A stretch of 64,000 nucleotides of DNA from an uncultured cyanobacterium. GTDB lineage: Bacteria > Cyanobacteriota > Cyanobacteriia > CAKZMO01. Positions within the stretch are counted from its first letter, which is position 1; each line of letters starts with the position of its first letter. Of the stretch, positions 35 to 44,170 are shown piece after piece. The DNA is taken from NCBI GenBank assembly GCA_963719515.1, contig CAVRCJ010000015.1, positions 1 to 64,000 of the forward strand, written 5' to 3'. The position numbers were made by a program, and so were the translations under genes. The notes below the pieces were generated by a model that made no database searches, had not been told where the DNA came from, and saw nothing but the letters and a program-made list of their open reading frames with translations.

Positions 35-175
35 TCAGGACGGCTTCTCTAAATGTAGGCGATCTATCCAATCCTCTACCAGTTGAGTCATGGTCTTGTC
101 CCTCTCTTTTGCAATCGCCCTAAGCTTTTGCAATCTTTTAATAGAGACTCTTAAATTAAGCTGTCCTTTTGCCAT
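35..175 (-). CDS. 46-aa ribbon-helix-helix (CopG/Arc-like) protein, not in the ORF track
   Basis: Hand translation MAKGQLNLRVSIKRLQKLRAIAKERDKTMTQLVEDWIDRLHLEKPS*; beta-alpha-alpha RHH pattern; lies inside the IS ends. Confidence 0.75.
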   Translation of the reverse strand: MAKGQLNLRVSIKRLQKLRAIAKERDKTMTQLVEDWIDRLHLEKPS

Positions 176-218
176 ACTGCCTACACAATGCCTACGCATC
201 TATGCTAACATAAACAGT

Positions 219-1343
219 ATGAGAACATTGAAGTTTAAGATATACGAGCACAAGCGGAACCGGCACCTAAAGCGCACTATTAATGCTGCTGGGGTGATTT
301 GGAACCACTGCATTGCTCTCCACAAACGGTACTACCGTATGTGGGGCAAACACCTCAATTGCTCTAAACTTCAGTCTCATATTGCCAAGCTACGGAGGCG
401 CAATCCGTTTTGGCAGTTGGTGGGGTCTCAGGCTGTGCAGGACATCTGCCAGCGAATTGAAAAGGCATACCAGCTGTTCTTTAAGCATCACGGCAAAGGC
501 TATAGGCCGCCTAGCTTTCAGAAGGTAAGGCGATACAAGTCGTTCACCCTAAAACAGGCGGGATACAAGCTGCTCAATGGTGGTCGTATCAAGATAGGTA
601 GCAGGGTCTACCAGTATTGGAATTCAAGGGAGATAGAGGGCAAGGTTAAGACCGTCACGGTGAAGCGATCGCCTTTGGGTGAGCTGTTTTTAGCCGTTGT
701 GGTGGACCAGGAAGCTGAACCAGTTCAAGGCATCGAGACGGGTAAAACCGCTGGTGCTGATTTTGGACTGAAGACGTTTCTCACTTTGTCAGATGGTACT
801 CAAATCGAGTCTCCTGAATTCCTGAAAGCATCGCTCAAAGACCTTTGCCGAGCTAGCCGCAACCTATCGCGCAAGCGAAAAAAGTCGGCAAACTGGCACA
901 GGGCAAGACTAAATCTAGCTCGCTGCCATGAGGCCATAGCCAATAGGCGACGAGATTGGTTTTGGAAGCTTGCCCACCGGCTAACCGATACCTACGATGC
1001 GCTCTACTTTGAGACGCTGAACCTGAAAGGGATGCAGCGGCTATGGGGCCGGAAGATATCGGACCTAGCCCTAGCTGAATTTCTCGAAATCCTTCAGTGG
1101 GTGGCAAAGAAAAAAGGCAAGACCGTAGCATTCATCGACCAGTGGTATCCCAGCTCTAAAACTTGTAGCTGTTGTGGGCACGTACTGAAGGAGTTAGATC
1201 TAAAACAACGGCAGTGGGATTGCCCTATTTGCAACGAACATCACGATCGAGACTTGAATGCTGCAATAAACATTCAACGGGTTGGGGCGTCAACCCGTGG
1301 GCTAGGCGATGTCAGACAGGCTCAGCCTGCGATCGCTGCTTGA
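219..1343 (+). CDS. tnpB: RNA-guided endonuclease TnpB
   Basis: N-terminal MRTLKFKIY; RuvC motifs GADFG, FETLN, DRDLNAAINI; zinc finger CSCC/CPIC; ATG 219 preferred over 90. Confidence 0.95.
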   Translation: MRTLKFKIYEHKRNRHLKRTINAAGVIWNHCIALHKRYYRMWGKHLNCSKLQSHIAKLRRRNPFWQLVGSQAVQDICQRIEKAYQLFFKHHGKGYRPPSFQKVRRYKSFTLKQAGYKLLNGGRIKIGSRVYQYWNSREIEGKVKTVTVKRSPLGELFLAVVVDQEAEPVQGIETGKTAGADFGLKTFLTLSDGTQIESPEFLKASLKDLCRASRNLSRKRKKSANWHRARLNLARCHEAIANRRRDWFWKLAHRLTDTYDALYFETLNLKGMQRLWGRKISDLALAEFLEILQWVAKKKGKTVAFIDQWYPSSKTCSCCGHVLKELDLKQRQWDCPICNEHHDRDLNAAINIQRVGASTRGLGDVRQAQPAIAA

Positions 1344-9869: not shown

Positions 9870-10010
9870 CTAGGGAGCAATCTTAGGCAGTCGCCTCACG
9901 TACTCGCGAATTACTAAAGCGATACTCCAGCCCTTGTTATCTGCGTAAGCTTTCAACTTTTCAAATTCTTCATTGGTCATTCGTACTCTCAACATCTTGT
10001 CTAGCGGCAT
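9870..10010 (-). CDS. 46-aa ribbon-helix-helix protein, not in the ORF track
   Basis: Hand translation MPLDKMLRVRMTNEEFEKLKAYADNKGWSIALVIREYVRRLPKIAP*. Confidence 0.8.
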   Translation of the reverse strand: MPLDKMLRVRMTNEEFEKLKAYADNKGWSIALVIREYVRRLPKIAP

Positions 10011-10038
10011 ACTGCTACAACCGTGCTACAATAATTGC

Positions 10039-11283
10039 ATGCTAACACGACGTATCACCTACCGGCTATATCCGACCAAACGGCAGGGTAGTAGTCTGTT
10101 TGAGTGGAAACGTTTGCATTGCTATCTATACAATGCAGCGTTAGCTGACAGGCGCGACATGTATAAACGCTGGGGCATCAGTGTTGACTATTATGCTCAG
10201 CAGAATTGTTTGCCAGCGTTCAAGGCAGAATGGCCTGAATTTGCTGAGCTTGGCAGTCATGCGCTGCAAGCGACATTAAAGCGGGTTGACTTCGCATTTG
10301 AGCGGTTTTTCAAGGGACTTGGAGGATATCCAAAGTTTAAGGGAAACCGCTTTTATGCTGGCTGGACATATCCGTGTAAGGCGGGCTGGAAAGCGCTCAC
10401 CGAGGGCAAGCATGGTAGCTTGAAACTGTCTAACCTAGGCGTTATCAAGATGCGCGGCAACGCCCGCACATGGGGCACCCCTACCACTTGCACTATCTTC
10501 TGTCGGAATGGCAGGTGGTATACCAGCATCACGGTCAAATGCAACCCGGTGCGGGAGACAGGGACAGGCGCTATCGGTGTGGACCTGGGCTGCAAAGATG
10601 CCATATCGTTCTCGGACCGCACCAAAGAGCGCAAGCCTCAATTTATCGCCGAGGGCGACCGGGCCGTTAAGCGACTGAGCAAGTCCCTGCAAAGGAAGCG
10701 CCGCCCTGACCGGCGTGGTGGGGTGCGTGGCTCTCGCAGATGGAAAGCAGCGCAACAAAAGATTTCTAGTCGCAAGCGAACAGTGAAGCGCCAGCGCGAG
10801 GATTGGCTTCACCAGGTAACCAGCAGCATAGTACGCGATAACAGCCTAGTTGCTGGCGAACAACTCAACGTCAAGGGCATGACTCGCAAGGCCCAGAAGG
10901 GTAAGCGGAAAAAGCAAAAGGCCGGTCTCAACCGCTCTATCTTGTCGGTAGGGTTTGCCGAGATTGGCAAGCTGCTATCCTACAAAGAGGCTGAGGCGGG
11001 TGGATTCTATGTCGAGTCACCTACCCGGCAGCTTAAGCCTACTCAGCGGTGTGCTGTGTGCTGGCAGACGACGCCCAAGACTATGGCTGAGCGCACTCAC
11101 GTATGCCAGCACTGCGGTCATGTTGAGGACCGCGATACCAATGCTGCCCAGGTCAATCTGATTTGGGCCAAGGGGCAGGAACTGTCCTCAAGCCGTCGAG
11201 TATCAACCTCTACTGATTGCGGAAGCATGAAGCAAGTCGGTGCGTTGAAACGTGCGAAACGTCTAGCTCACCCTTGCGGCTAG
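10039..11283 (+). CDS. tnpB: RNA-guided endonuclease TnpB
   Basis: RRITYRLYPT; GVDLG, AGEQLNVKGM, DRDTNAA; CAVC/CQHC zinc finger. Confidence 0.95.
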   Translation: MLTRRITYRLYPTKRQGSSLFEWKRLHCYLYNAALADRRDMYKRWGISVDYYAQQNCLPAFKAEWPEFAELGSHALQATLKRVDFAFERFFKGLGGYPKFKGNRFYAGWTYPCKAGWKALTEGKHGSLKLSNLGVIKMRGNARTWGTPTTCTIFCRNGRWYTSITVKCNPVRETGTGAIGVDLGCKDAISFSDRTKERKPQFIAEGDRAVKRLSKSLQRKRRPDRRGGVRGSRRWKAAQQKISSRKRTVKRQREDWLHQVTSSIVRDNSLVAGEQLNVKGMTRKAQKGKRKKQKAGLNRSILSVGFAEIGKLLSYKEAEAGGFYVESPTRQLKPTQRCAVCWQTTPKTMAERTHVCQHCGHVEDRDTNAAQVNLIWAKGQELSSSRRVSTSTDCGSMKQVGALKRAKRLAHPCG

Positions 11284-20864: not shown

Positions 20865-21049
20865 AGTGTTTTTTTAGATTAGCTTGAGAATTCTCACTAC
20901 CAAGCTAGGAGGCTATAGATTACGCTGGCCTCTGCCCAAAGAGCTAGGTTAAACCCGTGACTGCTCATCACTAATGCAGTTGTATTTGGTCACAACATTC
21001 TCCTCAAAGGCGATCGCCTCCCCGCAAGCGCCATTAATTTAGCTACTAG

Positions 21050-21434
21050 ACAGGAAGCCCCGCGCTCTACCCGTCAGGGTGAGCGTCGGGATGAGAGTCG
21101 CGCTAGCCGAAGTGCGCCCGCAAAATGATGCACAGCGGATAGTGCGCTCAGCGCTGAGGCTAGCAGTTGGTATGATAGAGATAGCAAGGTGATACACCCC
21201 GCAAAGAGTGTGACGGGCCCGTAGGCGAAAGCTGCAAGTCACCCGTTCCTCAGTTTGCAAATGTATCTGCGACACATAGTGCGTATCCTCCCTCGCGGAG
21301 ATGAAAATTCAAAACTCTGCCGTGGGGCATCAGGCGGAGTATAAACCTATCTCAGGATATGTCTCGGCAATAGCTGGGAGTCACTGAGGAAGCCCGCGCT
21401 GTACAGCTTGCTGTCAGCGTCGGGAGGATGTCAC
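21050..21434 (+). mobile_element. Non-autonomous IS200/IS605-derived element without a protein gene
   Basis: Related hairpins GAAGCCC(C)GCGCT...AGCGTCGGGA at both ends; right end GGAGGATGTCAC resembles element 3 (GGAGGATGTCAA); left boundary approximate. Confidence 0.75.
21168..21176 (+). promoter_or_regulatory. Extended -10 promoter candidate
   Basis: TGGTATGAT (TGn-TATGAT). Confidence 0.5.
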
Positions 21435-21454
21435 CTAAAAACGATAATTTTCGT
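21183..21454 (+). ncRNA. Putative omega/reRNA-like structured RNA including a ~20-nt 3' guide
   Basis: Long-range pairings 21246-21254/21383-21391 and 21279-21292/21422-21434, plus local stems. Confidence 0.55.
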
Positions 21455-22007
21455 CCCCGACCCACAGGCTCACTGGGACAGACTGCCCCAATGAGTCAAC
21501 TTTGACCTCAACCCGATAGCGCTCGGGCTCGGTGCGCTGCAGCTGGTCGATGCGGGCATTGATTTCTGTGCGCTGATCCTCGGGGATGTAGTAACGCTCT
21601 AGGCCGTAGGTGAGGCGGCCCCAGCGATACTCCCCTTTGAGCGCCACCTGATTGGCTTCTACCTGGGGGCGATCGCGACTCACCCTCACCGCTGTCCAAG
21701 GGTCGCCGGTTCCTTCACTGGGGGCTTCTAGCACCACATACACCCGCAGCGGCGCATTCTGTGCTGCGGTCACTATGGCATCCCAGCCGGAAAGGCCCTC
21801 CAGTGCCTCTCCCTGCGAGATTTGATAATTGAGCGTTACGTAGTATCCCCGCAGCAGGTCGTAGGGGTCGACGGGGACGGTCTGCAGTAAAACAGACTGG
21901 CCGGTGGTGGTCGTGTACATCGAGCGGGCGGGACCCACAAAAATCAGCGCCAGCTGTAGCGTCAAAGGCAGCCAAAACTGCCAAGGGATGCGGGGAAAAC
22001 GGGTCAT
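21435..22007 (-). CDS. GDYXXLXY domain protein
   Basis: PVDPYDLLRGYYVTLNY, YGLERYYIPE. Confidence 0.9.
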   Translation of the reverse strand: MTRFPRIPWQFWLPLTLQLALIFVGPARSMYTTTTGQSVLLQTVPVDPYDLLRGYYVTLNYQISQGEALEGLSGWDAIVTAAQNAPLRVYVVLEAPSEGTGDPWTAVRVSRDRPQVEANQVALKGEYRWGRLTYGLERYYIPEDQRTEINARIDQLQRTEPERYRVEVKVDSLGQSVPVSLWVGDENYRF

Positions 22008-42879: not shown

Positions 42880-44170
42880 TTGACATCCTCCCCGCCCTGA
42901 AGAGCGGGGATTCCCGGTCTGCCCACTAGGTGGACTCCCGACGGGTGGACGCCTCAGCGCGAATTGCCCCTGACGAGGTCTTATGCCCGCTCCGCGTCCG
43001 TTTAGAGTCTCGGGCTAGCTCCAGCCCAGACGTTTCAATATTGCGGCTAGCATTGCCGTCCCGGTCTTGGGTTTTGCCGCAACCAAGGCAGACCAGCTCG
43101 CGCACCGACAGGTCCAGCTTGCCCCAGCGGTAGCCGCAGTCGGCACACTTCTGGCTAGTCGGCTCCCACCGGCTGATGACCGATACCTCGCGTTCCAGTA
43201 TCATCGCGGCCTTGGCCTCGCACATGGTTCGCAGATCACGCCAGCCCTGCTGCGCAATAGCGCGGGCCAACTTGCGGTTGCGGACCATGCCGGACACGTT
43301 TAGGTCTTCAATAGCCACAACGCTATGGTTGCGAATCAGCCAGGTCGAGAGCTTATGCAGAAAATCCTTGCGGATGTCCCGCTGCTTGGCCTTCAGCTTA
43401 GCAATGCGCAGCCGAGTACGCTCACGGCGCTTCGACCCCTTGAAGCGCCTATTCAGCTTGCGCTGCTCACGGCGTATCTTGCGGCCAATGCGGTCGTAAC
43501 CAGGAGACTCAACGCGCTGGCCGCTGCTGAGCACCGCGAACGTCTTGATACCCAAGTCCACACCCACGCTTTGGTTCTTGGCGGGGATGTGGACCGGCTG
43601 CACTTCGACAACGAAGCTCAGAAGATAGCGGCCTGCTCTGTCCTTGATGACGGTGACGGATGACGGCTCAGACGGCAGCGGCCTCGACCAGCGCACCTTG
43701 AGGTTGCCAATTTTGGCTAGATACACCTTGTCGCCCTTGAGCGAGAAGCCGCCCTTGCGGAATCGCGCCGACTGGCGGTTGTCTTTGCGCTTGAACCGGG
43801 GCGGCTTCACCTTTGGTCCTTTGCGCTTGCCTTTGAGCGAGTCAAAGAAGTTTTTGAACGCTACGCCCAAATCGGCGATGGACTGCTGCAGCGGGATATT
43901 TGATACCTCGCTCAGCCACTGGCGCTCAACCGTTTTCTTGGCCTGCGTGATGCAAGCCTTCTGAAGGTCGCCATTCTTAGGCAGCGAATCCGACTCCTTG
44001 CACAGTGCTAAGGCGTCGTTCCACACGACACGGCAGCAGCCAAACAGCTTGGCTAAGCTGATCTGCTGTCCGGACGTGGGATAGACGCGGTACTGGTAGC
44101 GGCACTTCATAAATACAATTGTCCTACAAAAGCCGCCCTAAAGGGCGGGGCTTGAGACCCAGTTTTTTTG
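42880..44170 (-). mobile_element. IS200/IS605-family (tnpB only) element 3
   Basis: Minus strand CTGAC|CAAAAAAACTGGG, left hairpin CCGCCC-TTTA-GGGCGG, right end GAATCCCCGCTCTTCAGGGCGGGGAGGATGTCAA. Confidence 0.85.
42926..44110 (-). CDS. tnpB: RNA-guided endonuclease TnpB
   Basis: YQYRVYPT, FGCCRVVWN, GVDLG, IEDLNVSGM, DRDGNAS; CADC/CLGC. Confidence 0.95.
   Translation of the reverse strand: MKCRYQYRVYPTSGQQISLAKLFGCCRVVWNDALALCKESDSLPKNGDLQKACITQAKKTVERQWLSEVSNIPLQQSIADLGVAFKNFFDSLKGKRKGPKVKPPRFKRKDNRQSARFRKGGFSLKGDKVYLAKIGNLKVRWSRPLPSEPSSVTVIKDRAGRYLLSFVVEVQPVHIPAKNQSVGVDLGIKTFAVLSSGQRVESPGYDRIGRKIRREQRKLNRRFKGSKRRERTRLRIAKLKAKQRDIRKDFLHKLSTWLIRNHSVVAIEDLNVSGMVRNRKLARAIAQQGWRDLRTMCEAKAAMILEREVSVISRWEPTSQKCADCGYRWGKLDLSVRELVCLGCGKTQDRDGNASRNIETSGLELARDSKRTRSGHKTSSGAIRAEASTRREST

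Follow-up and report, generated by a model that had tools for sequence, protein, structure and literature searches.

The 64,000-nucleotide stretch of contig CAVRCJ010000015.1 from an uncultured cyanobacterium that was analysed here (hereafter the window) contains, at positions 21043-21434, a 392-bp element that we name PATE1 and that is probably a non-autonomous, protein-less derivative of IS200/IS605 transposons, a palindrome-associated or miniature inverted-repeat transposable element (PATE/MITE) that carries the core of a TnpB guide RNA (omega-RNA) and would rely on TnpA and TnpB supplied in trans. This degree of confidence applies jointly to the whole explanation, which comprises the ends, an upstream hairpin, a promoter, an RNA scaffold, use of the RNA in trans and homing. 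Elements of this kind have already been described, and PATE1 is a clean and very abundant example of them, not a new system or class; what is particular to it is its copy number relative to tnpB, its mixed origin, a hairpin-plus-promoter module shared with other elements and a lineage-specific complement to its tail. A preliminary description of the window had recognized a protein-less element of IS605 type here and had read it as a self-promoted guide-RNA cassette, and every motif that it listed is indeed present where it was placed. The account that follows is built on computed copies, boundaries, flanking motif and tnpB-bearing parents, on an RNA core supported by homology and covariation, and on the conservation of a -10 box.

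Copies, boundaries and flanking motif of PATE1

A blastn search with positions 20900-21560 against the 5.28-Mb genome returned 97 segments, comprising 53 full-length copies (the copy in the window included), 23 matches to the left end (LE) only and 21 to the right end (RE) only. The full-length copies share 96-100% identity and differ in their flanks in every case, so the copies with distinct 3' flanks that the preliminary description had hoped to find by blastn exist in number. Their alignment sets the limits of the element, with TTAG directly before it (21039-21042) and the right end ...GATGTCAC present in all 53 copies and followed by unrelated sequence. The boundaries are thus exact and common to the family and the motif is fixed, and the copies show neither terminal inverted repeats nor target duplication, as befits a PATE or MITE. 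The orthologous locus of a sister species (genome G002) represents the empty site, where the element is missing and homology resumes exactly at 21435.

Both ends contain related hairpins, GAAGCCCCGCGCT...AGCGTCGGGA at 21054-21091 and GAAGCCCGCGCT...AGCGTCGGGA at 21389-21425, and these, like an internal CTCTGCC hairpin, are backed by the copies and by covariation. The terminal sequence GGAGGATGTCAC (21423-21434) had been likened to the right end of the third tnpB element of the window (open reading frame (ORF) 42926-44110, minus strand, Pfam OrfB_IS605), and the likeness is real: that element ends in GGAGGATGTCAA at 42880-42891, matching the end of PATE1 at 11 of 12 positions. No tnpA or tnpB lies within PATE1, for which blastx gives only a stop-containing remnant of a tnpB 3' end and 12 residues overlapping the LE, and the sole ORF of at least 40 aa essentially within the element is a 78-aa minus-strand frame in which the G002 copy has two 1-nt insertions. 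Folding of the whole element is moderately better than that of shuffled sequences (z -2.1 to -2.9), with both strands alike. Variation among the 53 copies is low and leaves no variable column in 21258-21339.

Directly beyond the RE, the minus-strand gene at 21435-22007 encodes a GDYXXLXY protein (PF14345). The preliminary description had drawn attention to a guide antisense to the last codons of this gene; the overlap is there, but it simply follows from where this copy was inserted. Two pairs of PATE1 copies in the same orientation lie 1.4-2 kb apart elsewhere in the genome (G000:C6:167508-167904 and 168886-169282; C10:299673-300069 and 301662-302058). The tetranucleotides CTAG (21047-21050), near an LE whose target is TTAG, and TCAC (21381-21384), near an RE that ends in TCAC, stand at equal distance 5' of their respective palindromes, and each is similar to the cleavage site of its own end. 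TnpA 'guide' positions are known near the ends of IS608, and the placement of these two tetranucleotides suggests that they may be such positions in PATE1.

The RNA core and the tnpB-bearing relatives

Evidence that PATE1 carries a guide-RNA scaffold comes from a comparison in which no gene-less copy took part. We aligned the last 140-162 nt of 12 tnpB-bearing relatives (TnpB identity 55-100%), and RNAalifold found three stems in this alignment. Together with a candidate pseudoknot, these structures show compensatory changes at 16 of 31 pairs, with 93.6% of cells paired against 37-46% when the partner strand is slid, and none of 500 shuffles reached the observed covariation values. A covariance model built from these 12 relatives (model R1) matches PATE1 over its full length at 21287-21434 (79.9 bits, E = 1.9e-15), and the match ends at 21434, the last base of the element. 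The same model scores the G002 copy at 73.4 bits and, throughout the genome, recovers 21 parent-type ends (120-127 bits), the 53 PATE1 ends (76-83 bits) and 29 weaker matches. The CTCTGCC/GGCGGAG hairpin (21315-21321 and 21333-21339), which the preliminary description had listed, is stem 1 of this structure and is supported by covariation; the parents have AGGGCT/AGCCCT at this place, a change on both strands. Judged by homology and covariation, therefore, the 3' part of PATE1 is a TnpB omega-RNA scaffold, a single RNA that overlaps the tnpB 3' end and the RE, with an added leader, and the earlier reading of this part as a guide-RNA scaffold holds.

An independent gene-less element in genome G008 (L058:1484-1914; G008:C230:4492-4922), 431 bp long and single-copy in its assembly, has identical LE and RE palindromes and a perfect TGATATAAT box, and with 95.8 bits it is the best match of R1 among all gene-less copies. 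The window itself has a further, weak R1 match at 1252-1382 (24.2 bits, E = 0.002), and it contains three tnpB genes of other sub-families (90-1343, plus strand; 9973-11283, plus strand; 42926-44110, minus strand).

Full-length relatives with tnpB, for which the preliminary description had called for a search, are present in the genome. About 21 tnpB-carrying elements have related ends, three of which also carry a Y1 tnpA, and 19 of 23 left ends pair with a right end, 15 of them at a distance of 1486-1490 bp, one at 1621 bp and three at 1787-1806 bp; the remaining left ends are two that are cut by contig ends and two weak matches. The 1.49-kb form encodes a 397-aa TnpB (OrfB_IS605, E = 7e-23; Cas12f1-like TNB, E = 1e-16; helix-turn-helix, E = 6e-8) and, at the usual place of tnpA, a 60-aa minus-strand ORF (e.g., G000:C15:110462-110644; L089:163-345, minus). 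The product of this small ORF resembles a ribbon-helix-helix protein, its Pfam match to DUF6290 being weak and below the cut-off (E = 0.0036). The 1.8-kb form encodes a Y1 TnpA (PF01797, E = 8.7e-37) together with TnpB. Of the 24 segments that tblastn matched at 85% identity or more, 17 are uninterrupted full-length copies of tnpB, and TTAG flanks all 18 tnpB-bearing relatives with a locatable left end and a readable flank (21 examined).

PATE1 retains a trace of such a gene. By blastx, 21220-21384 is collinear with residues 345-397 of the parent TnpB (E = 1.7e-6, one 2-residue gap), and the remnant ends in NSAVGHQAEYKPISGYVSAIAGSH before its stop, compared with NRAVGHQALNLSGNVSAVAGSH in the parent; the collinearity with the last 53 tnpB codons indicates the usual single omega-RNA overlapping the 3' end of its gene, not a split RNA. 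No closer tnpB 3' end was found in the genome by tblastn with a 35-residue portion of the remnant. The parts of PATE1 differ in their nearest relatives: PATE1 and the tnpB-only form have a 65-bp LE in common, with 12 of the 23 left-end matches 100% identical over 21038/9-21102, while the LE of the three tnpA-carrying copies is 88-92% identical to that of PATE1; over the last 85 bp, the identity of PATE1 to the tnpB-bearing form is only 86-90%. Over the RNA core, PATE1 agrees with a tnpB element from another genus (genome G111) in 104 of 128 columns and with the resident parent in 99 of 128, and the RE palindrome of the G111 element is identical to its own. Because PATE1 has the LE of the resident tnpB-only elements but resembles the G111 element more closely in its RE and RNA core, we regard it as being of mixed origin. 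The intervening stretch, 21103-21219, gave local alignment scores of 44 with the parent and 43 with the autonomous element, below the maxima of shuffled sequences (49 and 48, respectively), and in a short-word blastn search its sole match was the module carried by a further gene-less element on contig C7.

The core can be compared with the omega-RNA of ISDra2 TnpB, of which Nakagawa et al. (2023; PMC10097598), in the passages drawn on here, report that positions -5 to -3 pair with -103 to -105 in the stem-1 loop and that the 5' region is dispensable, the RNA being described as a natural single guide. PATE1 resembles it in a core of about 116-120 nt that ends at the element boundary, in a stem 1 placed about 100-120 nt upstream whose loop could pair just before the guide, and in having a 5' region ahead of the core. 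In PATE1 this pairing would be a candidate pseudoknot of 5 bp between stem-1 loop GGCAU (-109 to -105) and AUGUC (-7 to -3), which is possible in most relatives and which we infer for PATE1 by analogy. The two RNAs differ in that they have no sequence similarity, in their motifs (TTAG versus TTGAT) and in that the PATE1 RNA lies outside an intact tnpB. Likeness to the tracrRNA:crRNA of Cas12f is confined to a long scaffold RNA whose 3' end bears the guide; the PATE1 family has no two separate RNA genes, and the proposed anti-repeat lacks conservation and is missing from the tnpB-bearing relatives.

The closest known kind of element is the omega-RNA-encoding PATE of IS200/IS605 in Geobacillus stearothermophilus (Meers et al., 2023; PMC10055086). 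As far as the parts of that paper used here describe them, PATE1 shares with those elements the absence of a protein gene, both ends (LE and RE) of an IS605 family resident in the genome, TnpA in trans, an omega-RNA for the TnpB of other elements and a family-specific motif. It differs in its cyanobacterial host, in its 53 copies, which exceed the roughly 21 tnpB-bearing relatives, and in its mixed origin, and the same parts do not report a covarying hairpin plus extended -10 box for PATEs.

Promoter box, hairpin module and leader

The extended -10 box that the preliminary description had singled out is conserved as a box. Among 11 distinct variants from gene-less lineages, TGnTAnnnT is complete in 9 and TAnnnT in all 11, with the free positions varying; three rows stand outside this count, namely a full-length IS605 element in genome G025, a copy on contig C4 and a weak match in genome G045 (29.8 bits, no box). 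The copies within the genus have TGGTATGAT, TGCTATACT and TGGTATAAT, all 53 PATE1 copies keep the -10 pattern, two variant copies differing at free positions only, and gene-less lineages of no fewer than 6 genomes retain TGnTAnnnT. By our estimate, chance alone would yield about 0.4 occurrences of TGnTAnnnT per 400 nt. The conservation supports the box as a promoter element, from which transcription is predicted to start near 21183.

Between the LE and this box lies a 60-nt hairpin (21102-21164) for which RNAalifold on 6 sequences gave 22 pairs. Over 22 distinct sequences from 8 genomes, in an alignment that was fitted to the model, compensatory changes occur at 18 of the 22 pairs, and 94.8% of cells are paired versus 31-48% with a slid partner. 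Hairpin and box form a module that occurs 76 times in the genome (53 in PATE1, 19 in a second gene-less family and 2 in a third, with 3 weak matches) and in none of its tnpB-bearing elements. A covariance model of the module (R2) found it in 9 of 151 cyanobacterial genomes searched, the present genome (G000) included, and in loci of sufficient length an R1-type RNA end follows about 370-400 nt 3' of it, with no tnpB between. The complete genome G025 contains a full-length IS605 element (L143:1440-2100), with tnpA on the minus strand followed by tnpB, in which the hairpin separates the LE from the 3' end of tnpA and is not followed by a -10 box. The occurrence of the hairpin without the box in this element indicates that the hairpin is older than the gene-less elements, to which the promoter seems to have been added. 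In PATE1 the hairpin may work at the level of the top DNA strand or serve as an insulator; for IS200, a terminator-like role is known.

The leader, 21183-21314, is of much narrower distribution. It has no blastn match elsewhere in the genome, and relatives were found in the same genus only, at 93% identity in G002 and 86% in G004. An order-wide search of 17 genomes matched it in G000, G002 and G004 only, an exact-pattern scan of genome contigs found it in 2 records, both of the same genus, and a first metagenome scan found none. Two contigs from a second metagenome scan were rejected, each having a chance 30-nt match within an unrelated stretch. Three diverged leader sequences (G000, G002, G004) are therefore available in all. 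Within the leader, GTGAC and GTCAC face each other at 21210-21214 and 21238-21242. The coordinates of all features are collected in Table 1.

Table 1. Features of PATE1 and its immediate flanks (window coordinates)
Feature	Position	Strand	Remarks
TTAG target / transposon-adjacent motif	21039-21042	+	Flank, outside the element; invariant in 53/53 copies, preceding base T in 47/53
LE with subterminal imperfect palindrome (21054-21091)	21043-21102	+	Shared with tnpB-bearing elements
Module hairpin adjoining the LE	21102-21164	+	Covariation
Extended -10 box TGGTATGAT	21168-21176	+	Predicted transcription start near 21183
Predicted RNA leader	21183-21314	+	One genus only as far as searched
Decayed remnant of the last 53 tnpB codons	21220-21387	+	Internal stop; original TGA at 21385-21387
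Lineage-specific complement to the terminal 13 nt ('anti-repeat')	21279-21292	+	Pairing energy versus shuffles
Predicted omega-RNA core	21287-21434	+	Stem 1 at 21315-21339, stem 2 at 21351-21388, stem 3 (RE palindrome) at 21393-21424, tail at 21422-21434
3' flank, would-be guide CTAAAAACGATAATTTTCGT	21435-21454	+	Overlaps the stop and last codons of the minus-strand GDYXXLXY gene

Mechanism, competing explanations and other gene-less families

From these results we infer transcription, TnpB loading, cleavage and homing as steps of one cycle. TnpA from the three copies that carry both tnpA and tnpB would excise PATE1 as single-stranded DNA and insert it 3' of TTAG; a cognate Y1 TnpA is thus present in the family, and mobilization of PATE1 by it is predicted. 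A transcript from about 21183 would run through the right end into the flank, yielding a scaffold of about 250 nt followed by a copy-specific guide, which TnpB from the roughly 17 intact tnpB copies, whose omega-RNA ends are related and which share the TTAG motif, would load in trans. The preliminary description had already pointed out that the RNA would have to serve a TnpB in trans with the 3' flank as guide. After excision, TnpB would cut the resealed empty site (TTAG plus guide), and recombination with the sister chromosome would restore the copy. The scheme is the homing model put forward by Meers et al. (2023; PMC10055086), in which an emptied site is re-cut and the copy restored; the passages drawn on here also state that omega-RNAs in need of TnpB from other elements are often encoded by PATEs. 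Among the 53 guides, none has a second genomic site with TTAG plus at least 15 matching bases, and we thus see no sign of other targets. Guide-RNA genes outnumber nuclease genes in this genome, with 53 copies against about 17 intact tnpB and 3 tnpA, which suggests that the element parasitizes both enzymes of its parent transposons. The promoter and the conserved hairpin upstream of it hint at how an omega-RNA may be expressed after the loss of tnpB and its mRNA, and such elements may be of use in choosing minimal natural scaffolds and promoters for cyanobacterial TnpB tools.

Several results weigh against this explanation. A strict sigma-70 scan for -35 and -10 boxes predicted no plus-strand promoter and a minus-strand candidate only, the plus-strand box being missed by the scan because it has no -35. 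Over the core, the omega-RNA end of the resident TnpB agrees with that of PATE1 in only 99 of 128 aligned columns (about 77%), stem 1 differs from that of the parent and is followed by a 6-7-nt insertion, and compatibility with that TnpB is assumed. The pseudoknot shows no compensatory change, with 3 of its 5 pairs invariant, one relative breaking one pair and 4 of 60 cells unpaired. The near-identity of the copies reflects a recent burst, which makes conservation within the genome weak evidence, and the conserved zone was spotted post hoc. Finally, Rfam gave no match at gathering score in the element (and only a tRNA in the whole window), and within 20950-21550 even a cut-off of E = 10 yielded nothing; the same search had been suggested as a check for an unrelated known RNA family, and none was matched.

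The scan and the burst would also suit the view that PATE1 is an inert deletion derivative, in which the ends alone matter for TnpA and everything between them, the omega-RNA-like part and the -10 box included, is carried along as a passenger without an RNA function. The ends of IS608 suffice for TnpA, and copy identities of 96-100% speak for recency, not for selection. Such a passenger would not be expected to keep stem 1 while both of its strands differ from those of the parents, nor a whole core that fits the family model, nor TGnTAnnnT with varying free positions across gene-less lineages of at least 6 genomes; moreover, none of the 26 positions at which G002 differs from PATE1 falls within 21266-21363, and the independent G008 element has the same core behind its TGATATAAT box. 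We consider the inert derivative unlikely. We assign a lower probability still to an RNA made for some other end, be it an outward promoter that alters the expression of adjacent genes (at this site, antisense to that of the GDYXXLXY protein), a decoy for TnpB or a set of guides adopted by the host. The promoter is indeed directed outward across the right end at all 53 sites, and guide-bearing copies far exceed intact tnpB genes, but the 53 flanks lack second TTAG-adjacent matches of the length searched for, the insertion sites share no feature beyond TTAG and nothing ties the copies to a host function, so that this group of explanations appears quite improbable to us.

The preliminary description had gone further and suggested that, should full-length relatives carry tnpB between the two halves, PATE1 would be a natural single-guide fusion of two RNAs, a tracr-like one encoded 5' of tnpB and a cr-like one at the right end, joined by an anti-repeat:repeat duplex. 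The pairing on which this rests is striking in PATE1 itself: GTG-C-GTATCCTCCC at 21279-21292 faces GGGAGGATGTCAC at 21422-21434, the 13-bp tail complement has an energy of -17.5 kcal/mol, equalled by at most 0.005 of 200 shuffles, and the duplex appears in the centroid fold when the RNA ends at 21434. It is, however, a property of this lineage. Tail-to-upstream pairing at or below 0.02 of shuffles occurs in just 2 of 27 tnpB-bearing relatives, the G002 duplex has a C.U mismatch in its middle (shuffle fraction 0.11) and in the G008 element the duplex is lacking (0.365). The pair probability varies between 0.06 and 0.54 with the assumed RNA ends and is 0.06 once a guide is attached, and the duplex is mutually exclusive with the candidate pseudoknot, whose counterpart the ISDra2 omega-RNA needs according to the parts of Nakagawa et al. 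(2023; PMC10097598) used here. The tnpB-bearing relatives, in addition, have nothing like 21183-21273 upstream of tnpB, and 21220-21384 is collinear with the 3' end of tnpB itself. A perfect 9-bp long-range duplex that had been listed alongside it, TTCCTCAGT/ACTGAGGAA at 21246-21254 and 21383-21391, fares no better, as it uses the 3' strand of stem 2 and reaches a probability of 0.03-0.28 versus 0.72-1.0 for that local stem, whose pairing covaries in the family; one perfect duplex of 8-9 bp per 400 nt is about what chance would give (our estimate, some 80,000 position pairs divided by 65,536). The covariation check called for at the outset thus upheld the end hairpins and the CTCTGCC hairpin and left the long-range duplex and the tail complement unsupported in the family. 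The split tracr/cr model is largely refuted, and we hold it to be highly improbable.

With PATE1 read as a non-autonomous element with a single omega-RNA, the shared module permits a broader and more speculative extension, to which we give little credence at present: that hairpin and -10 box form a portable expression cassette for guide RNAs, joined to the RNA ends of at least three IS605 sub-families here and of others in several genera and providing omega-RNA without tnpB, and that the newly arisen tail complement of PATE1 is a switch that would compete with the pseudoknot and hold the RNA in an inactive state pending remodelling by TnpB or by processing.

The second gene-less family of the genome, PATE2, has 19 copies of about 460 bp (e.g., C11:34700-35200, L127, and C15:118340-118890 in G000). 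It resembles PATE1 in its TTAG flank, its similar end hairpins and its hairpin-plus-box module, and its RNA end is of R1 type with weaker scores of 42-46 bits; it differs in having another, longer leader, and it has relatives in other genera (G111, G096), in contrast to the single genus of the PATE1 leader. A gene-less element of G111 that had been considered as a homologue of PATE1 was rejected as such, being a relative of PATE2. A third gene-less type (G000:C7:179640-180120, L128; C4:97900-98420, L129) has the same module ahead of a 3' part that R1 does not match, and the -10 box of its C4 copy is interrupted by an inserted stretch that contains tandem GTACTT-like units.

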